Shown here in pieces: positions 1-7,832 of a DNA stretch of 7,832 bases (position 1 is the first letter of the stretch; each line of letters opens with the position of its first letter). The translations under genes and the position numbers were made by a program. The stretch lies in IMG/VR virus record IMGVR_UViG_2627853765_000005; one strand, 5' to 3'. This DNA comes from a virus (lineage: Duplodnaviria > Heunggongvirae > Uroviricota > Caudoviricetes). The notes beneath the pieces were generated by a model, which worked only from the letters and a program-made list of their open reading frames with translations, was not told where the DNA came from and made no database searches.

Positions 1-28
1 ACTAAATCAGTAAGTTGGCAGCATTACC
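1..28 (-). mobile_element. IS1 copy, terminal 28 bp only (IRL end); rest lies left of the window
   Basis: Bases 1-28 match the right end of the complete IS1 (877-904) at 27 of 28 positions. The terminus reads GGTAATGCTGCC on the minus strand, a mix of the IRL and IRR consensus. Confidence 0.8.
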
Positions 29-151
29 AAAAAGGGTGAGCGATTTTTGATAGTTGAACCAGGCACTTTAAGTTTAACTAGGGCGTCATTATTTATTAAA
101 TTTTATAGACGCTATATATGGGTAGTAATATACATGGGTAATGACTCCAAA

Positions 152-849
152 TTATTGATAGTGTTTTATGTTCAGATAATGCCCGATGACCTTGTCATGC
201 AGCTCCACCGATTTTGAGAACGACAGCGACTTCCGTCCCAGCCGTGCCAGGTGCTGCCTCAGATTCAGGTTATGCCGCTCAATTCGCTGCGTATATCGCT
301 TGCTGATTACGTGCAGCTTTCCCTTCAGGCGGGATTCATACAGTGGCCAGCCATCCGTCATCCATATCACCACGTCAAAGGGTGACAGCAAGCTCATAAG
401 ACGCCCCAGCGTCGCCATAGTGCGTTCACCGAATACGTGCGCAACAACCGTCTTCCGGAGCCTGTCATACGCGTAAAACAGCCAGCGCTGGCGCGATTTA
501 GCCCCGACGTATCCCCACTGTTCGTCCATTTCCGCGCAGACGATGACGTCACTGCCCGGCTGTATGCGCGAGGTTACCGACTGCGGCCTGAGTTTTTTAA
601 GTGACGTAAAATCGTGTTGAGGCTAACGCCCATAATGCGTGCAGTTGCCCGGCATCCAACGCCATTCATGGCCATATCAATAATTTTCTGGTGCGTACCG
701 GGTTGAGAAGCGGTGTAAGTGAACTGCAGTTGCCATGTTTTACGGCAGTGAGAGCAGAGATAGCGCTGATGTCCGGCAGTGCTTTTGCCGTTACGCACCA
801 CCCCGTCAGTAGCTGAACAGGAGGGACAGCTGATAGAAACAGAAGCCAC
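152..849 (-). CDS. insB: IS1 InsAB' transposase made by programmed -1 frameshift at the A6C motif (insA frame 849-574, insB' frame continuing to 152)
   Basis: The insB' frame translates to ...[21 protein letters not shown]...[10 protein letters not shown], the InsB sequence. The AAAAAAC slip site sits at 592-598 (minus-strand sense). The insB' frame has an in-frame TAG at 623-625 upstream of the slip site, so an independent long InsB from the ATG at 653-655 is not possible in this copy. Confidence 0.85.
574..849 (-). CDS. insA: IS1 InsA (91 aa), transposition inhibitor and N-terminal part of the InsAB' transposase
   Basis: ORF translation [39 protein letters not shown]... is the InsA protein with its zinc-finger-like CxxC...CxxC and helix-turn-helix. 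This copy has the VSL variant. Confidence 0.95.
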
Positions 850-905
850 TGGAGCACCTCAAAAACACCATCATACACTAAATCAGTAAGTTGGCAGCAT
901 CACCG

Positions 906-962
906 AAGGACGGCAAGGACATTGTGCCCGATCGCATCCGTTCCGCGCTTGGGCTTGGCTGA
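906..962 (+). pseudogene. 3' remnant (18 codons, ...KDGKDIVPDRIRSALGLG*) of the gene upstream of gpE, truncated by IS1; possibly a tail tube (P2 FII-like) gene
   Basis: An open frame runs straight out of the IS1 boundary at 904/905 to a TGA at 960-962, just upstream of the gpE-like gene. In P2 gene order (FI-FII-E-E'-T-U-D) this position is FII. The frame choice and identity are inferred, not recognised. Confidence 0.3.
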
Positions 963-1017
963 TAAGTAATATGCTGGCGGCGCAGTGCGTCGCCTCTGAC
1001 TGAAAAGGAGACAACAG

Positions 1018-1392
1018 ATGAAAGACATCGATACTGAAACCCGGAATAACACCGTGGCGGATAATGTGACGGCAGTTGAGGATATGGCTGTCGAACGTGG
1101 CGTAAAACTGACCCGACCAATTGAGCGTGGTGGCGAAAAAATCACGTATGTGGAGATCACCGGGGCTATTGAGCAGGCTGGATCCCTGCGTGGTCTGTCG
1201 CTGTCTGATGTGCTGAATCTGAAAGCGGATACCATGTTCACGCTGTTGCCTCGCGTGACCTCGCCACGACTGGATGAAGTGATGATTAAAAAAATGTCGT
1301 CACGCGATTTTATTCAGTTGTGCGCTGTGGCTGTAAATTTTATGAGTGAGCCAGACTCTGGCGCGAAGAGCGTGCAGGAGACGGCAGCGTAA
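1018..1392 (+). CDS. Phage tail assembly chaperone, P2 gpE-like (124 aa)
   Basis: ATG at 1018 preceded by AAGGAG (1005-1010). The protein contains ...SLRGLSLSDVLNLKADTMFTLLPRV..., typical of P2 E-family chaperones, and sits immediately upstream of the tape measure gene. Confidence 0.85.
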   Translation: MKDIDTETRNNTVADNVTAVEDMAVERGVKLTRPIERGGEKITYVEITGAIEQAGSLRGLSLSDVLNLKADTMFTLLPRVTSPRLDEVMIKKMSSRDFIQLCAVAVNFMSEPDSGAKSVQETAA

Positions 1393-1556
1393 TCACCCTG
1401 GTGTGCTTTGAGCACATCGAAGATCTGGTGGCGGATATTGCCGCCATTTTTAACTGGTCGCCCGCCGAAATCTTCATGATGACGCCCTGCGAAGTGGTTA
1501 GCTGGCGTGAGCGAGCGGCACTTCGTAGCGGGAATGCAGACAATGAAGACTCTTGA
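1350..1556 (+). CDS. E' extension frame (-1 relative to gpE), expected to be expressed only as an E+E' fusion by programmed frameshift
   Basis: The -1 frame is open for 68 codons from 1350 to a TGA at 1554-1556 and has no start codon of its own. It encodes ...DLVADIAAIFNWSPAEIFMMTPCEVVSWRERAALRSGN..., overlaps the last 13 codons of gpE and the first codons of the tape measure gene, as in P2 E/E'/T. The slip site was not identified. Confidence 0.5.
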   Translation, partial: ARLWREERAGDGSVITLVCFEHIEDLVADIAAIFNWSPAEIFMMTPCEVVSWRERAALRSGNADNEDS

Positions 1557-4350
1557 TATCCGGGTCGCTTTCAGCGCCGTTGACAGGCTGACCCGGCCTG
1601 CCGAAAACGCCCGCCGCCTGATGGGGCAGTTTGGTGACTCCATCCAGCGAACGCAGGGGGCGATCAAAAATCTCGAGCGTCAGGCGCGATCATTTGAGCG
1701 CGCCCGTGACGCTGTCAGTAAAGCGGATGCGGGCATCGTGAAAGCACGACGCCAGCTTAACGCCCTTAATCAGTTACAACGCACGGGTACAGTGCTCAGC
1801 GAAAAACAACAAAAGCTGATGCAGCAGTTAAGCACCCGGCTTGAACGCCTGAATGAATCGCGCACACGGGAAATTCAGAAAATGCGGGAGCTTGGCGGAG
1901 AGCTGAAACGCCACGGCATTTCCCTGACAGGCAGCGATAACACCATCCAGCAGGCCATCAGACGCACCGAACAGTACAATAACCAGCTTGAACGCGAACG
2001 GCAGGCGCTTGCGCGTGTAACACGGGCGCGTGAGCGGTATTCGCGCGCGCAGGAAACAGCGGGAAAACTGAAAACAGGTGGTGCGCTGGCAATTGGTGCG
2101 GCAGCGGCGGGCGGCTATGCTGCCGGGCGTTTTTTGCAGCCTGCGATCGGGTTCGGCAAAGAGATGTTCCGCGTTCAGGCACTGACGCGAATCGACCAGA
2201 ACAGCCCGCAGTTTAAGGCGCTGCGTGAGCAGGCGTTAAAACTTGGCTCTGAAACGCAGTTCACCGCAGGCGATGCCGCCAGTGGACAGGCATTTCTTGC
2301 AATGGCTGGCTTTACACCACAGGCCATTCAGGCTGCGCTCCCTGGCGTACTGAGCATGGCAACGGCTGGCGGTATGGACCTCGGTGAGACGGCGGATATT
2401 GGCTCAAATATTCTGACGCAGTTCGGTCTTTCTGCTGACCAGATGGACCGGGTCGGCGACACACTCACCGCAGCGTTTACCCGTACCAACACTGACCTTC
2501 GCGCACTGGGTGAAACCATGAAATATGCAGGTCCGGTGGCGGGTAAGCTGGGAATATCTCTGGAGCAGGCCGCAGCGATGGCGGGCGTGCTGGCGAATAT
2601 GGGTATCAGGGGGAGTGATGCTGGTACGGCAATGCGTGCCAGCCTGGCTCGTCTGGCATCACCGCCAAAGGCGGCAGCAGAGGCGCTGAAAGAGCTTGGC
2701 GTGTCTGTCTCGGATGCCGGGGGCAAAATGCGCCCGATGGAGGATGTGCTGGCTGACCTTTATAAAGCTACCCGCAAATACGGGGAAGTTGACCGGGTAT
2801 CGTTCTTTAAGGACATTGCCGGAGAAGAGGCTTTCACATCATTTATGGCCCTCGTTGATGCGGCAGGTTACGGCTCCTTACCCAAACTGAGAAAAGAACT
2901 TGAAGGCGCGCGCGGTGAGGCTGAACGCACGGCAAAGGTTATGGCCAACAACCTTGACGGCGATCTGAAATCACTCAGCAGTGCATGGGAAGGGTTGCGC
3001 ATCCGCATTGCAGATCTGATTGACGGTCCGCTGCGTTCTGTCACGCAGTGGCTCACGCGTGTGGTATCAAAGGTGACGGCGCTGGCGCAGGCCCATCCCG
3101 CACTGACGCGCCAGCTACTGATTGCAGGCGGTGCATTGCTGGCAATGACTGCAACGGTTGGCTCGTTGTCGCTGGCTATTGGTGTGCTTGCTGGCCCGCT
3201 GGCAAAACTGCGTCTTGGTTTTTCCCTCCTGACCGGATCAATGAATGCTGTCAGGGTTCTGCCAGCACTATGGGGAATGGTGACGGGTTCCGTTTCTTTA
3301 CTGGGAGGCGCTATCGGGGCGTTGTTCAGTCCGGTTGGTCTTATCGTGGCTGCGCTTGCCGGAGCTGCCGTTCTTATCTGGAAATACTGGGATCCCATCA
3401 GGGCATTTTTTGCCGGGGTGTTCAGCGGGATTATGGAAAGGCTGACCCCGTTGCGCGAAACATTTGAACGGTTTGGTCCTGTTTTTGACGCAATCGGGAG
3501 TGGGATCAGCCAGGTGTTTAACTGGTTTAAATCGCTGCTGTCACCGATGGAGTCCAGCAAGGAAACTCTGGATAAATGTACCAGTGCTGGCGAGATATTC
3601 GGTAACGTTCTTGGCGGTGCGTTACAACTTGTTCTGACACCTGCAAAAATGTTGCTGGATACGCTGGCGTGGATACTTGAAAAGCTTGGTGTGCTTCCGG
3701 ATGAAGCGGAAAGGGCGCGCAAGAAAATCGAAGACGCACAGCGTGCGGCCATTCTTCAGGACAAGGTTGCCTTGCTTCAGGGGGACCTGGCGAAAATCAA
3801 TCCGCCGAAGCCTGTGGAAAATGGCAATGGCACCGGAGGTGATAACCCCAAAGACAATAAACCGCTCACAGACAGCAATACCGGTACGCTGCGCAGACTC
3901 AGCAAAATTGCTGATAACACAGGTAAGCTGGTTGAGGAGACGAAAAAACGCATTGGCCCCGGCGATATTGTCTTTAAAAACCTGCCCCGAGCACTTGCTG
4001 TTCGTGGGGAGTGGCAGGAGCGGAAGATTGCGCAGGTCAGTAAGCCTGCCCCCGCAATTAATATCACACCCGTGGTTCCGGCTCCGCTGCCTCCGGCGCT
4101 GGTCCCTGTTGTTGCGGCCAGCTCCCGCCCGGTGGCGGAGGCTATACGATCTCCAGTGGCATCAGTTCCTGTAACTTCCCGTAACCGGGAGCCTGTTGCC
4201 TCCGGATTTGGTGGTGAAATTCATGTTCATCTGCATAACGTTGTTACGCAGAATCCCCGCGAACTGGCGAAACTGGTCGGTGAAATGGTCAGGGCAGAAA
4301 TGGAACGGCGCGCCCGTGCCGGGCGTGGCTGTTTTTACGATAAAGATTGA
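1543..4350 (+). CDS. Phage tail tape measure protein (P2 gpT-like, about 935 aa)
   Basis: Very long ORF directly after the chaperone pair. It has a coiled-coil-like N-terminal region rich in Q/R/E/L, a long Gly/Ala-rich hydrophobic stretch (about 3091-3390) and a Pro-rich C-terminal stretch. Start is chosen at the ATG at 1543 (GGGA 9 nt upstream); the ATG at 1534 and the GTG at 1507 are alternatives. Confidence 0.9.
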   Translation: MKTLDIRVAFSAVDRLTRPAENARRLMGQFGDSIQRTQGAIKNLERQARSFERARDAVSKADAGIVKARRQLNALNQLQRTGTVLSEKQQKLMQQLSTRLERLNESRTREIQKMRELGGELKRHGISLTGSDNTIQQAIRRTEQYNNQLERERQALARVTRARERYSRAQETAGKLKTGGALAIGAAAAGGYAAGRFLQPAIGFGKEMFRVQALTRIDQNSPQFKALREQALKLGSETQFTAGDAASGQAFLAMAGFTPQAIQAALPGVLSMATAGGMDLGETADIGSNILTQFGLSADQMDRVGDTLTAAFTRTNTDLRALGETMKYAGPVAGKLGISLEQAAAMAGVLANMGIRGSDAGTAMRASLARLASPPKAAAEALKELGVSVSDAGGKMRPMEDVLADLYKATRKYGEVDRVSFFKDIAGEEAFTSFMALVDAAGYGSLPKLRKELEGARGEAERTAKVMANNLDGDLKSLSSAWEGLRIRIADLIDGPLRSVTQWLTRVVSKVTALAQAHPALTRQLLIAGGALLAMTATVGSLSLAIGVLAGPLAKLRLGFSLLTGSMNAVRVLPALWGMVTGSVSLLGGAIGALFSPVGLIVAALAGAAVLIWKYWDPIRAFFAGVFSGIMERLTPLRETFERFGPVFDAIGSGISQVFNWFKSLLSPMESSKETLDKCTSAGEIFGNVLGGALQLVLTPAKMLLDTLAWILEKLGVLPDEAERARKKIEDAQRAAILQDKVALLQGDLAKINPPKPVENGNGTGGDNPKDNKPLTDSNTGTLRRLSKIADNTGKLVEETKKRIGPGDIVFKNLPRALAVRGEWQERKIAQVSKPAPAINITPVVPAPLPPALVPVVAASSRPVAEAIRSPVASVPVTSRNREPVASGFGGEIHVHLHNVVTQNPRELAKLVGEMVRAEMERRARAGRGCFYDKD

Positions 4351-4356
4351 GGAGTC

Positions 4357-4851
4357 ATGGCCATGATGATGATCTACGGCATGTTTGTTTTTGAGCTGCG
4401 CACGCTGCCGCATCAGCAGTTACAGCAAAACAAAAGCTGGCGGCATGTGAAAAATGAACGCGTTAACCGTTCAGCAAGCTGGCAGTATATCGGTGCAGGT
4501 GATGATCGCATCGTTCTTTCTGGTGTGCTTTATCCTGAAATTACAGGTGGCGAAGTGTCGCTGTCGCTGCTGACCACGCAGGCGTATACAGGACTACCCT
4601 GGCCTTTGATTGATGGCGTCGGGCAGATTTACGGCATGTATGTCCTGACTGAAACGAATACGACCCGCTCCGAGTTTGATCGCTACGGTAAGGCGAAAAA
4701 GATAGAATTTTCACTGACTCTTGAACGCTGTGATGAGGATTTGCGGGAGCGCCTGCAATCCTCATCGTTCAGTGATATGCTGTCCGGCTTCAAAGATAAG
4801 GTGACATCATCTCTTAACAGCGCGGCCAGTTCAGTTAAAGGGCTGTTCTGA
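4357..4851 (+). CDS. Phage tail protein, P2 gpU-like (164 aa)
   Basis: Translation ...GMFVFELRTLPHQQLQQ...LSGVLYPEITGG...WPLIDGVGQIYGMYVL...KKIEFSLTLER... matches the P2 gpU family pattern and follows the tape measure gene as in P2. GAGGAG at 4349-4354; the ATG at 4363 is an alternative start with better spacing. Confidence 0.85.
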   Translation: MAMMMIYGMFVFELRTLPHQQLQQNKSWRHVKNERVNRSASWQYIGAGDDRIVLSGVLYPEITGGEVSLSLLTTQAYTGLPWPLIDGVGQIYGMYVLTETNTTRSEFDRYGKAKKIEFSLTLERCDEDLRERLQSSSFSDMLSGFKDKVTSSLNSAASSVKGLF

Positions 4852-4860
4852 TTTAACACA

Positions 4861-4890
4861 AAAACCGCTAATGGTCAGATTAGCGGTTTT
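4861..4890. terminator. Bidirectional rho-independent terminator hairpin between convergent gpU and the invertase gene
   Basis: Perfect inverted repeat AAAACCGCTAAT (4861-4872) / ATTAGCGGTTTT (4879-4890) with a 6-nt loop GGTCAG, followed by TTTTCATTTT on the plus strand and a U-rich run on the minus strand. The right arm overlaps the last codons of the invertase. Confidence 0.65.
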
Positions 4891-5479
4891 CATTTTCCTG
4901 AGTCTGCCCGGTTGTTTCTTCAGTCTGTATATCGCCTACAGGGTGATAACGATAAATCGTCGATGTGCCAATGCCGTAAATTATTGCCAGTTGTTTTCTG
5001 TCGTGCCCGTTTTTGATTAGCCTTGCTATTTGCTCATGCTGTTCTTTTGTCAGCTTCGGTCGACGTCCGCCTGTGCGCCCCCTTGCGCGCGCTGCCGCCA
5101 GCCCGGCCAGTGTACGTTCAACAATTAATTCACGTTCCATTTCAGCCAGGGCACCCATCACGTGGAAGAAAAAACGCCCCATTGGAGAAGATGTGTCTAT
5201 GCTGTCGGTCAGACTGCGAAAATTAATCCCTCGCTCCCGTAGTTCCCCGACGAGAGAAATCAGATGTTTCATGCTTCGCCCGAGGCGATCCAGTTTCCAG
5301 ACAACCAGCGTGTCACCTTTTTGAAGGCGCTTTAAAGCGCGTTTTAATCCCGGTCGGTCTGTCTTTGTCCCGCTTAATTTATCTTCAAATATTTGTTCAC
5401 ATCCTGCACAAACAAGAGCGTTTCGTTGCAGGTCTGTATTCTGGTCATTTGTTGATACCCTTACATAGCCAATCAGCAC
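4880..5479 (-). CDS. Serine DNA invertase of the Gin/Pin/Cin/Hin family (about 199 aa)
   Basis: From the GTG at 5479 (GGGAG 7 nt upstream) the protein begins (M)LIGYVRVSTNDQNTDLQRNAL..., the canonical invertase N-terminus with the catalytic serine. It continues ...GDTLVVWKLDRLGRSMKHL...MGRFFFHVMGALAEMERELI... and ends with a helix-turn-helix (...QLAIIYGIGTSTIYRY...). Confidence 0.93.
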   Translation of the reverse strand: MLIGYVRVSTNDQNTDLQRNALVCAGCEQIFEDKLSGTKTDRPGLKRALKRLQKGDTLVVWKLDRLGRSMKHLISLVGELRERGINFRSLTDSIDTSSPMGRFFFHVMGALAEMERELIVERTLAGLAAARARGRTGGRRPKLTKEQHEQIARLIKNGHDRKQLAIIYGIGTSTIYRYHPVGDIQTEETTGQTQENENR

Positions 5480-5533
5480 ACTGAATCTCCCGTCCAAAAG
5501 CGCAAATCATGCCATGCAGGCCAGAAACGGCCA

Positions 5534-5559
5534 TTATTTAAAACCTCGGTTTACAGGAA
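5534..5559. promoter_or_regulatory. gix/pix/cix-type 26-bp recombination (crossover) site for the invertase
   Basis: The minus-strand reading TTCCTGTAAACC-GA-GGTTTTAAATAA matches the Mu gixL sequence as I recall it at 24 of 26 positions, with the central GA dinucleotide at 5546-5547. It lies between the invertase start and the fibre cassette, and the fibre reading frame opens inside it. Confidence 0.8.
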
Positions 5560-5583
5560 ACGGTAAACAGGGCTGGTAACGCC

Positions 5584-6420
5584 GTGCAAAAAAATGGCGA
5601 TACCTTGTCCGGTGGGCTTACTTTTGAAAATGACTCAATCCTTGCCTGGATTCGAAATACTGACTGGGCGAAGATTGGATTTAAAAATGATGCCGATGGT
5701 GACACTGATTCATACATGTGGTTTGAAACAGGCGACAACGGCAATGAATATTTCAAATGGAGAAGCCGCCAGAGCACCACAACAAAAGACCTGATGACGC
5801 TGAAATGGGATGCACTAAATATTCTTGTTAATGCTGTCATTAATGGCAGTCTTGGAGTTGGTTCGACGAATGCGTTAGGTGGTAGCTCTATTGTTCTTGG
5901 TGATAATGACACCGGATTTAAACAGAATGGAGACGGTATTCTGGATGTTTATGCTAATAGTCAGCGTGTATTCCGCTTTCAGAATGGAGTGGCTATTGCT
6001 TTTAAAAATATTCAGGCCGGGGATGGTAAAAAATTCACGCTATCCAGCTCCAACAACTTCACAAAGAATGCAACGTTTAATTTATGGGGTGCTTCAACCC
6101 GTCCAGTAGTTGCAGAGTTAGGCGATGAGGCAGGATGGCATTTCTATAGCCAGCGAAATACAGATAACTCGGTAATATTTTCTGTTAACGGTCAGATACA
6201 GCCCAGCAACTGGGGGAATTTTGATTCACGCTATGTAAAAGATGTTCGCCTGGGTACGCGTGTTGTTCAATTGATGGCGCGTGGTGGTCGTTATGAAAAA
6301 GCCGGACACGCAATTACCGGATTAAGAATCATTGGTGAAGTAGATGGCGATGATGAAGCCATCTTCAGACCAATACAAAAATACATCAATGGCACATGGT
6401 ATAACGTCGCACAGGTGTAA
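5584..6420 (+). CDS. Tail fibre C-terminal variable-domain cassette (Mu S / P1 S family); likely the silent copy in the present orientation
   Basis: The frame is open from 5542, immediately after a TAA inside the gix site; the first in-frame start is the GTG at 5584, with no convincing ribosome-binding site. The C-terminus ...RPIQKYINGTWYNVAQV resembles the second cassette on the opposite strand. It is followed directly by a tail fibre assembly gene. Confidence 0.8.
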   Translation: MQKNGDTLSGGLTFENDSILAWIRNTDWAKIGFKNDADGDTDSYMWFETGDNGNEYFKWRSRQSTTTKDLMTLKWDALNILVNAVINGSLGVGSTNALGGSSIVLGDNDTGFKQNGDGILDVYANSQRVFRFQNGVAIAFKNIQAGDGKKFTLSSSNNFTKNATFNLWGASTRPVVAELGDEAGWHFYSQRNTDNSVIFSVNGQIQPSNWGNFDSRYVKDVRLGTRVVQLMARGGRYEKAGHAITGLRIIGEVDGDDEAIFRPIQKYINGTWYNVAQV

Positions 6421-6423
6421 ATT

Positions 6424-6951
6424 ATGCAGCATTTAAAAAATATTAAGTCCGGAAATCCAAAAACAAAAGAACAATATCAGCTAACAAAGAATTTTGATGT
6501 TATCTGGTTATGGTCCGAAGACGGTAAAAACTGGTATGAGGAAGTAAATAACTTTCAGGACGACACCATAAAGATTGTATACGACGAAAATAATATTATT
6601 GTTGCCATAACCAAAGATGCCTCAACGCTTAATCCCGAAGGCTTTAGTGTCGTTGAGATTCCAGATATAACAGCCAATCGTCGCGCCGATGATTCAGGGA
6701 AGTGGATGTTTAAGGACGGAACTGTGGTTAAGCGGATTTATACAGCAGACGAACAGCAACAACAGGCCGAATCACAAAAGGTCGCGTTGCTTTCTGAAGC
6801 TGAAAGCGTTATTCAGCCACTGGAACGCGCTGTCAGGCTGAATATGGCGATGGATGAGGAACGCACACGACTGGAGTCATGGGAACGCTACAGCGTTCTG
6901 GTCAGCCGTGTGGATACAGCAAATCCCGAATGGCCACAAAAGCCTGAGTAA
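6424..6951 (+). CDS. Tail fibre assembly protein (Tfa / Mu U family, 175 aa)
   Basis: Protein [24 protein letters not shown]...[30 protein letters not shown]... is Tfa-like. It starts 4 nt after the fibre cassette stop and is paralogous to the minus-strand ORF at 6980-7513. Confidence 0.85.
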
Positions 6952-6956
6952 AAATT

Positions 6957-6976
6957 AAGGCCCAATATCGGGCCTT
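6957..6976. terminator. Hairpin between the convergent tail fibre assembly genes, a possible bidirectional terminator
   Basis: AAGGCCC (6957-6963) / GGGCCTT (6970-6976) with a 6-nt loop. It is flanked by an A/T-rich run on the minus-strand downstream side; the plus-strand U tract is weak. Confidence 0.4.
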
Positions 6977-6979
6977 CTC

Positions 6980-7513
6980 TCATTCTGGTTGTTCGGGAAA
7001 CGTTACTGGCAGGCTGGAGGTGTCTGTAGATTCGACTTTCTGCGCATAGAGCATCCACTCGGTTAATTTTTGTTTATTCTCGTCGGAAATGATGCCCAGC
7101 CGTAGCTGTGAGTCCCATAGCTGGGTTTTATCCCTGACAAGTTGCAACAGGCTTTGCTTTTCATTTTCCGCTTGTTGCCTCTGCTCTTCCTCGGTATAAG
7201 TTCGCTTTATCACTACGCCATCTTTGAACAACCATTTCCCCGAAATATCAGCCCGGCGATTTGCTGTAATATCAGGTAATTCAACGACGCTTGCGCCTTC
7301 CGGATTAATTGCTGAAACATCCTTTTCAATACAAATAATAACGCCGTTATGGTCATAGACCATTTTCAAAGTGTCTGGCTGGAAATTCTTTTGCTCCTCA
7401 TACCAGTTTTTTCCATCATCTGAATAAAGCCATTTGATGTTAAATTGCTTTGTTAGCTGGTATTGCTCTTTTGTTTTAGGGTTGCCAGCAGTAATGTTTT
7501 TTAAGTGCATCAT
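6980..7513 (-). CDS. Tail fibre assembly protein, second copy (Tfa / Mu U' equivalent, 177 aa)
   Basis: Protein [24 protein letters not shown]...[30 protein letters not shown]... is a paralogue of the 6424-6951 product. GGGGAG lies 9 nt upstream of the ATGATG start at 7513. Confidence 0.85.
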   Translation of the reverse strand: MMHLKNITAGNPKTKEQYQLTKQFNIKWLYSDDGKNWYEEQKNFQPDTLKMVYDHNGVIICIEKDVSAINPEGASVVELPDITANRRADISGKWLFKDGVVIKRTYTEEEQRQQAENEKQSLLQLVRDKTQLWDSQLRLGIISDENKQKLTEWMLYAQKVESTDTSSLPVTFPEQPE

Positions 7514-7515
7514 CG

Positions 7516-7802
7516 TTAAATACTCCCCGCGTTATACCACGTCCCATTAATGCAATACTGAATTGGCCTTGCCTGTGTTGTATCAATTAATTCATCACGG
7601 TTTCCGTTAACTGAACCCGTAACGACATAACCTGACCTGTCAGACCAGCCGGGACCATTCCATGTCTGAACAGATGACAGACCGCCAAGGCGAATACCTG
7701 TAATAAACCTTGAGTTACATTCTGCCCGCGTATATGCACCAACATCTCCCGCTGAAGGTTTTCGTGTCGTGGTATAGAAATCTGACCAACCTAATTCAAC
7801 CC
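7516..7802 (-). pseudogene. Second tail fibre C-terminal cassette (Sv' equivalent), 3' part only; its 5' part is interrupted by IS1
   Basis: My manual minus-strand translation is open for 96 codons from the IS1 junction to a TAA at 7516-7518: ...GAYTRAECNSRFITGIRLGGLSSVQTWNGPGW...QARPIQYCINGTWYNAGSI*. The C-terminus parallels ...RPIQKYINGTWYNVAQV of the plus-strand cassette. There is no start codon before IS1 begins at 7803. Confidence 0.75.
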
Positions 7803-7832
7803 GGTAATGACTCCAACTTATTGATAGTGTTT
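7803..7832 (-). mobile_element. IS1 copy, first 30 bp only (IRR end); rest lies right of the window
   Basis: GGTAATGACTCCAACTTATTGATAGTGTTT matches the IS1 IRR terminus and 137-166 at 29 of 30 positions. It is in the same orientation as the complete copy. Confidence 0.85.

Follow-up and report, generated by a model that had tools for sequence, protein, structure and literature searches.

A probable Gin-type tail fibre inversion switch interrupted by IS1 in a defective P2-like prophage of Shigella

The 7,832-nucleotide stretch of caudoviral DNA recorded in IMG/VR as IMGVR_UViG_2627853765_000005, which is referred to here in its full length as the window, carries a serine DNA invertase gene, a 26-bp crossover site and two convergent pairs of tail fibre and fibre assembly genes. 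Taken together, the region very probably represents a site-specific inversion switch of the Gin/Cin/Pin family for fibre C-termini, homologous to the G segment of phage Mu, interrupted by the insertion sequence IS1 and residing in a defective P2-like prophage. A preliminary description of the same DNA had proposed a G-like layout, with an invertase followed by a gix-like site and by a plus-strand fibre cassette and assembly gene that face a second such pair on the minus strand, and every one of these elements is indeed present. The components of the switch are listed below, with the basis of each assignment in brackets.

4880-5479, minus strand: Gin/Pin-family serine DNA invertase of 199 amino acids (aa), intact, with Ser9 and Met114 (Pfam; Gin structures).
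5240-5479, minus strand: presumed Fis-dependent recombinational enhancer in the 5′ 240 nucleotides (nt) of the invertase gene (234 of 240 nt identical to Mu gin).
5534-5559, plus strand: gix-type crossover site on the invertase side, 26 bp, TTATTTAAAACCTCGGTTTACAGGAA (site scans; alignment with Mu).
5547-6420, plus strand: silent Sv-type fibre C-terminal cassette, without a constant part in this orientation (Gp34_trimer).
6424-6951, plus strand: tail fibre assembly protein of the Mu U type, 175 aa (Caudo_TAP; 96.6% identical to Mu U).
6980-7513, minus strand: tail fibre assembly protein of the Mu U′ type, 177 aa (Caudo_TAP; 97.2% identical to Mu U′).
7516-7802, minus strand: last 95 codons of an S′v-type cassette, severed from its 5′ part by IS1 (Mu S′v; collinearity with the relative L001).
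7794-7802, no strand: one copy of the 9-bp IS1 target duplication, ATTCAACCC, the reverse complement of GGGTTGAAT.
7803-7832, minus strand: first 30 bp of the IS1 placed inside the invertible segment, at the contig end (repeats; junctions in sister genomes).

The invertase has been correctly assigned to the Gin/Pin type in the preliminary description. The protein contains the Pfam domains Resolvase (PF00239, E=1.4e-50) and HTH_7 (PF02796, E=4e-13), matches the structures of Mu Gin (4m6f/3uj3) with E=1e-100 and is 85% identical to Mu Gin, residues 1-115 being almost identical. Translation starts at the GTG codon at 5479, as in gin, and not at the TTG at 5497 that had been given before. Both the catalytic Ser9 (VLIGYVRVSTNDQ...) and the wild-type Met114 (...ALAEMEREL...), a residue whose mutation renders Gin independent of Fis, are retained (PMC3575834). 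Next, Q150, R153 and L154 in helix 1 of the DNA-binding domain (...EQIARLI...) align with Q151, R154 and L155 of Hin, and these residues are conserved only among invertases that depend on Fis and the enhancer (PMC3798978). An identical invertase protein is encoded by the relatives L005, L006 and L009. In Mu, Hin and Cin, the Fis-binding enhancer sits in the 5′ part of the invertase gene. The conservation of the corresponding stretch of the window would fit an intact enhancer, although the catalytic domain, itself conserved, is encoded by the same nucleotides. As a separate observation, the gene is a mosaic in relation to Mu gin, with identities of 97.5% over nt 1-240, about 89% over nt 241-360 and about 55% over the last 240 nt, the divergent part being the one that specifies the DNA-binding domain and an acidic tail of greater length.

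The crossover site, the reverse complement of which was quoted in the preliminary description, consists of an outer half TTATTTAAAACC, the core dinucleotide TC (5546-5547) and an inner half GGTTTACAGGAA, and in direct alignment it is identical at 24 of 26 positions to the Mu site adjoining gin. As had been noted before, it is the only such site in the window: no second gix was found with up to three mismatches, nor in a scan allowing six. The motif gave no matches in 200 dinucleotide-preserving shuffles, even with three mismatches. Its partner, TTATCGAATACCTCGGTTTACGAGAA, is found in inverted orientation inside the 661-aa fibre gene of the intact relative L001 (99.6% identical), with 2678 bp between the crossover points, and all related genomes that cover the region in full (L001, L003-L011, L024 and L026) have the two sites, both with TC as the core. 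The single visible site could be taken to mean that the 26-bp motif and the convergent gene pairs resemble a recombination system only by chance; the probability of this is next to nil, as the idea is refuted by the shuffles, by the likeness to the Mu site, by the 85-97% identity of the proteins to Mu Gin, U, U′ and S′v, and by the reciprocal exchange of half-sites in natural genomes, which is described below.

The whereabouts of the second site become apparent from close relatives. Two genomes, L024 and L026 (CP041513.1), are collinear with positions 136-7832 of the window at 99.9% identity (7-8 mismatches in 7.7 kb), both IS1 junctions included. Past the point where the window ends, they continue with the rest of a 768-bp IS1 and then with 431 bp of the 5′ part of the S′v cassette, including the 9-bp duplication, after which follow the partner gix, 1277 bp of a constant P2-H-type fibre region, and gpI, J, W and V; the long contigs L035-L038 share this arrangement. 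In L005, the duplication GGGTTGAAT is present on both sides of the 768-bp IS1, which points to a simple insertion. Judging from these comparisons, the right-hand IS1 lies inside a 3455-bp invertible segment, and the second site is out of view because the IS1 is within the segment and the draft contig stops there. The preliminary description, which had placed the partner site and the constant 5′ part of the fibre gene beyond this IS1, was therefore right about the direction, since both are seen from 431 bp past the far end of the element in 99.9%-identical genomes with the identical junction, and has to be amended in that the IS1 itself belongs to the segment. The constant N-terminal part of the fibre is not within the window, and in the sister loci it is P2-H-like (PF12571, Phage_tail_fib).

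By analogy with L026, in coordinates extended beyond the window, the IS1 would occupy positions 7803-8570, the 5′ part of the cassette 8571-9001 and the partner gix 8989-9014, and the constant fibre region is predicted at 9002-10278. Over its whole length the window is 100% identical to the draft contig AMKD01000124.1 at NCBI (assembly GCA_000815765.1), all of which it covers; both ends are breaks at IS1 repeats, and a rightward extension is therefore impossible in this assembly. In the source genome, the partner gix is probably in its normal place, and would most probably be located about 1.2 kb past the contig end, at the predicted 8989-9014.

Evidence that the segment inverts is provided by the arrangement of the sister genomes. 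For this comparison, four pieces of the region were distinguished: A, the flank of the segment next to the invertase; B, window positions 5547-7802; C, the 431 bp from the partner site to the IS1; and D, the constant fibre region. The genomes fall into two classes, with either A-B and C-D joined, which is the state of the window, or A-C and B-D joined, which is the flipped state. The flipped state occurs in the intact prophages L009, L011, L040 and L041 and, together with the same IS1 insertion, in L005/L034 (CP026866.1), L039 and the drafts L015 and L019. The IS1 boundary is seen at the window's own junction in L005 and at the opposite, cassette-5′ side in L015; in L039 the IS1 is placed from gene order and the positions of the pieces, and the L019 contig ends about 3 bp before the insertion point, so that the IS1 is not reached. 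Both drafts, L015 and L019, have 0 mismatches to the window over 4.6 kb. Over 8.6 kb, the flipped L039 differs from the unflipped L026 at one position and the flipped L005 from the unflipped L037 at three, while six differences separate the two flipped genomes L005 and L039. Each flipped genome is thus nearest to an unflipped one, which implies at least two independent inversions after the arrival of the IS1. The cassette haplotypes, of which there are two (A,H and T,R), agree with this, as both are found in either orientation. The two orientations that the preliminary description had suggested looking for are thus found, across sister genomes and not within one culture. In this respect, the draft contig L020, from a strain with an identical tape measure protein, stops inside the gix at the equivalent of window position 5541; as a sign of mixed orientations in one culture this contig end is too weak and was left unused.

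The half-sites at the joints follow the same pattern. In the window state the two sites read TTATTTAAAACC-TC-GGTTTACAGGAA and TTATCGAATACC-TC-GGTTTACGAGAA, and in the flipped state TTATTTAAAACC-TC-GGTTTACGAGAA and TTATCGAATACC-TC-GGTTTACAGGAA. The outer halves are fixed, with TTATTTAAAACC at the invertase and TTATCGAATACC at the constant region, and the inner halves swap partners, GGTTTACAGGAA travelling with the Sv cassette and GGTTTACGAGAA with the S′v cassette. Such a reciprocal exchange of the inner halves matches a crossover at the central TC. Given the inversions that followed the IS1 insertion, the sites and a compatible invertase were functional recently.

The same genomes bear on whether the resident invertase is still responsible. 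It is quite unlikely that the switch is a fossil, with both sites present, the local invertase inactive or unexpressed, and the polymorphism left by rare past events or produced by other Pin-family invertases. Opposite orientations separated by 0-1 substitutions over 4.6-8.6 kb, in two separate haplotypes, argue for frequent and recent flipping, and the invertase open reading frame of the window is intact, identical in product to that of intact prophages, and conserved in its catalytic and Fis-contact residues. What makes a fossil conceivable is the heavy decay of the prophage, with IS1 in both the tube gene and the fibre cassette, the truncation of the invertase to 142 aa in L037 (CP026867.1, 8628-9056) and the documented cross-reaction of such enzymes on foreign segments, PinQ being able to invert the e14 P segment (PMC12529663).

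The cassettes themselves are fibre modules joined to the constant region by the crossover. The Sv-type cassette begins at the crossover point 5546/5547, its frame being open from LGLQETVNRAG..., and not at the GTG codon at 5584 as proposed previously. The plus-strand open reading frame 5584-6420 matches Gp34_trimer, and the cassette forms the C-terminus of a 716-aa fibre in the flipped L005/L034 and L040. In the window the outer half-site adds a stop codon ahead of the cassette (II*NLGLQET...), which is consequently silent in this orientation. At the other end, positions 7516-7802 align collinearly with the last part of the gene for the 661-aa fibre in L001, and the minus-strand fragment 7519-7800 shares 94.6% identity with the Mu S′v C-terminus. 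With the Caudo_TAP matches and the Mu identities of the two assembly proteins, the earlier view of 5584-7513 as homologues of fibre and assembly genes holds. The Sv-type tip is only 47% identical to Mu S while U, U′ and the S′v end are 95-97% identical to those of Mu and P1, and the receptor-binding tip appears to have been swapped out with the chaperones retained.

A reading frame entering from the constant region (...AVIEYLGL) crosses the site into either cassette. The joint with Sv, ...IEYLGL/QETVNRAG..., yields the 716-aa fibre followed by the U-type assembly gene, as seen in L005, and the joint with S′v, ...IEYLGL/RELGTSGEK..., yields 661 aa in the intact prophages; in the IS1-bearing lineage the latter gives a 570-aa protein that ends in ...GYGVEW, with the stop just inside the IS1. 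The window orientation is equivalent to the G(-) state of Mu, with S′v and U′ facing the constant part, and in the IS1 lineage this is the broken-fibre state.

A likely course of events can be modelled on Gin. The invertase would bind the 26-bp site at 5534-5559 and the inverted partner site inside the fibre gene, a step that we infer because the catalytic domain and the sites are near-identical to Gin and gix. With host Fis on the presumed enhancer within 5240-5479, both sites would be cut at the central TC and the strands rotated. The DNA between the sites would thereby be inverted, and whichever cassette then faces the constant P2-H-type N-terminus (Sv with U, or S′v with U′) would be translated in frame. 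The IS1 that has landed in the S′v cassette splits the segment across the contig break; in the window orientation, the constant part would run into the IS1-broken cassette and yield the truncated 570-aa fibre, and in the flipped orientation the intact 716-aa fibre is made. The locus had originally been called a host-range switch, and the type of switch is upheld; the role in virion host range is vestigial, the prophage being riddled with IS1 and one cassette broken.

To the left of the invertase, the window contains P2-type tail genes and further IS1 sequence, as follows.

1-28, minus strand: terminal 28 bp of another IS1 copy, at the contig end and assembly break (direct repeat of 877-904).
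29-136, no strand: 108-bp scrap of yccE, chromosomal and outside the prophage, between two IS1 copies (match to yccE).
137-904, minus strand: complete IS1 with insA and insB, which interrupts FII, the tail tube gene of P2 type (open reading frames; Pfam Zn_ribbon_InsA/DDE_Tnp_IS1).
905-962, plus strand: 58-bp 3′ remnant of the tail tube gene FII (collinearity with the last part of the L001 tube gene, 4571-5083).
1018-1556, plus strand: gpE/gpE′ tail assembly chaperone pair (weak Phage_TAC_7; PF06528 GpE on 1401-1556).
1543-4350, plus strand: tape measure protein gpT, 935 aa (PF10145, PhageMin_Tail).
4363-4851, plus strand: tail protein gpU (PF06995 Phage_P2_GpU, E=2e-38).

The switch resides in a P2-like prophage (Peduoviridae, Xuanwuvirus-like) that is defective and belongs to the Shigella boydii/dysenteriae lineage. 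GpE, PhageMin_Tail and Phage_P2_GpU are all found in the window, the full P2 gene set is present in the sister loci, where the H-type constant fibre region is followed by gpI, J, W and V, and the closest phage records belong to Xuanwuvirus (Peduoviridae). It is not a Muvirus, as the invertase adjoins the P2-type gpU, gpT and gpE. For the truncated fibre proteins that are peculiar to the IS1-bearing form, the source names are Shigella boydii, Shigella dysenteriae or 'MULTISPECIES Shigella', and from these names the source of the window is almost certainly a Shigella of the boydii/dysenteriae group. Decay of the prophage is evident from the IS1 copies in the tube gene and the fibre cassette, and more pseudogenes are found in the sister genomes. 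An uninterrupted form of the element is present in 91 complete Escherichia coli genomes (coverage at least 80%), at identities up to 99.7%; none of the complete E. coli genomes has the IS1 junctions, and the best matches cover 902-7802 only. An exact-match scan for the fibre/IS1 junction in a one-genome-per-species contig collection, evidently one without this lineage, likewise gave no match, and the exact gpT protein was found in short draft contigs only.

Some features of the tail genes stand apart from the switch. The 124-aa gpE and the overlapping 51-aa GpE-family open reading frame have the layout of the E/E′ pair of P2, which is produced by a programmed -1 frameshift. The FI-FII-E-E′-T-U operon and the invertase are on the strand opposite to H-I-J-W-V and D/ogr (L001, 2120-13622; L003; L044), and in phage P2 (L043) the tail operons and D/ogr are all co-directional. 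The operon from FI to U was considered as a second, larger invertible segment, and this was rejected, as no flanking gix-like site or convincing inverted repeat was found; it is further ruled out by the arrangement itself, which does not vary among about 99 E. coli genomes and the Xuanwuvirus records.

The left flank is relevant to whether the partner site is really in place. The insertion point of the left IS1 in FII is common to L005, L024 and L026. In the window, what lies to the left of this IS1 is the yccE scrap, which matches yccE at 100% in more than 4000 E. coli genomes, and an IS1 end, and in all of the sister long-contig genomes compared that retain the block a truncated tube gene is found there. 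All three IS1 copies of the window are in direct orientation; the copy at 137-904 is complete with its InsA and DDE_Tnp_IS1 domains, and the right-hand one is, in L005, a 768-bp element with its duplication. The left joint of the contig reflects either an IS1-mediated rearrangement or relocation in the strain or an arbitrary path of the assembler.

The 570-aa truncated fibre is shared by a large number of S. boydii/dysenteriae assemblies, two of which, AMKE and AMJS, belong to the accession series of the window; the source assembly GCA_000815765.1 was not among the places displayed for this protein in a de-duplicated listing. S. boydii CDC 3083-94, the genome of which is finished (L031, CP001063.1, 10001-12938), has a single IS1 behind the 570-aa fibre gene and, next to it, the tube remnant and the sheath gene, and the AMKE and AMJS drafts (L025 and L027) have the same fibre-IS1-tube order. 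In all three, the 7.7-kb block between the IS1 copies, comprising gpE-T-U, the invertase, one gix and most of the segment, is gone, and the fibre gene keeps an orphan partner gix. The alternative that had been raised before, namely that the missing parts were deleted, therefore has a precedent in CDC 3083-94, but it is the invertase side that was lost there.

Several points weigh against the interpretation of the region as a switch complete with its partner. First, the partner gix is unseen in the source assembly, as the contig ends 30 bp into the IS1. Next, the joint to yccE in place of the tube gene means that at least one IS1 junction has been rearranged or was mis-threaded by the assembler. 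The loss of the block in CDC 3083-94, AMKE and AMJS indicates that recombination between IS1 copies does occur here. Finally, the flips could have been carried out by another Pin-family invertase acting in trans.

A rival reading is that of an orphaned half-switch, in which an IS1-mediated deletion, or a relocation next to yccE, has parted the block with the invertase and its gix from the partner site and the constant fibre region, leaving a dead fragment incapable of local inversion. Such an account would explain the yccE fragment that stands between IS1 copies where the tube gene is expected, and it agrees with the three direct IS1 copies, which have the architecture of a composite IS1 transposon, as well as with the finished and draft genomes that lack the block. 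It is nevertheless unlikely. Seven block-bearing sister long-contig assemblies (L024/L033, L026, L035-L038, L005/L034 and L039) keep the block in place with the partner 1.2 kb away, and the window is indistinguishable from L024 and L026 in orientation and sequence (7-8 mismatches in 7.7 kb). Moreover, draft (de Bruijn) assemblers often emit an IS-flanked loop as a contig of its own and thread arbitrarily through IS copies, which would explain both the yccE joint and the joints in AMKE and AMJS.

Two further ideas are speculative and improbable: that the IS1-flanked block acts as a composite transposon and has been moved next to yccE, or that the host keeps the switch for a role at the level of the cell. 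If the 7.7-kb block had been relocated, an active invertase and gix far from an orphan partner could drive large chromosomal inversions or deletions. If there were a host role, it might consist in toggling between the 570-aa and 716-aa fibres, for example to mask receptors from other phages, a role reported for PinQ/StfE2.

The interpretation as an IS1-interrupted switch in its normal setting is in line with the known systems. The order of invertase, gix, cassette, U, U′, cassette, gix and constant region is that of the G segment and Gin of Mu (and D108), and the likeness extends to the invertase (85%), the gin-side site (24/26), U, U′ and the S′v C-terminus (95-97%) and nt 1-240 of the invertase gene (97.5%). 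In contrast to Mu, where the system lies at the right end with com and mom, the host here is P2-like, with gpE, T and U by the invertase; the constant region of the window lineage is P2-H-like, the Sv cassette is only 47% identical, the last 240 nt of the invertase gene, for the DNA-binding domain, are about 55% identical, and an IS1 is inserted in the segment. In L002 and L010 (8600-12500), the segment is found at 98.9% nt identity in Mu-like prophages that have com, mom and the baseplate and tail genes of Mu; the 3′ half of their invertase gene differs from that of the window, and the whole cassette module is common to Mu-like and P2-like prophages.

The B segment and pinB of Shigella boydii (D00660), reportedly described by Tominaga et al. 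in 1991, are said to resemble G and gin in size and organisation, with a different constant region outside. The window would match this description in the species group and in a G-gin-like arrangement with a different constant region; the IS1 insertion is not known to be part of the B segment as described. The start of its Sv cassette appears to be Mu-like (about 90% nt identity, from cross-references of P1 and Mu), whereas the Sv-type cassette of the window is divergent. Notes in the P1 record give 89-93% identity of P1 S, U, U′ and S′v to locus SHFPINB.

The P2-like prophage loci of enteropathogenic E. coli E2348/69 and the Xuanwuvirus phages (Escherichia phages 503458, 520873, P884B11 and P88) represent the same prophage type and likewise have the invertase between gpU and the fibre cassettes; they are uninterrupted, unlike the window lineage with its IS1-broken cassette in a defective prophage. 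The C segment and Cin of P1, P7, Min of p15B and the P segment and Pin of e14 share Fis-dependent serine invertases that switch fibre C-termini with paired assembly genes, and U, U′ and S′v of P1 are 95-96% identical to those of the window. The P1 cassettes are, however, much longer, the p15B system is multi-site and shufflon-like, and e14 is lambdoid. Fibre loci of P2-like prophages have been found to be phase-variable in E. coli by sequencing and polymerase chain reaction (Goldberg et al. 2014, PMC4272514), and a role in phage defence has recently been assigned to Pin invertases of cryptic prophages (PMC12529663).

The switch type is already known: Gin/Pin fibre switches are textbook systems, with earlier descriptions from Shigella boydii and from P2-like prophages. 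The twists are limited to the IS1 in the segment, by which the partner is hidden beyond a contig break, and to the continued flipping of a crippled switch. An apparently missing partner site can therefore be an artefact of an IS element in an invertible segment combined with a draft-assembly break. The exchange of half-sites constitutes a clean natural record of the crossover position, and the IS1-bounded loss of the invertase block is to be flagged in some S. boydii strains. Finally, such switches appear to keep flipping in cryptic prophages long after the death of the phage, which bears on the claims of host functions for the invertases of cryptic prophages.

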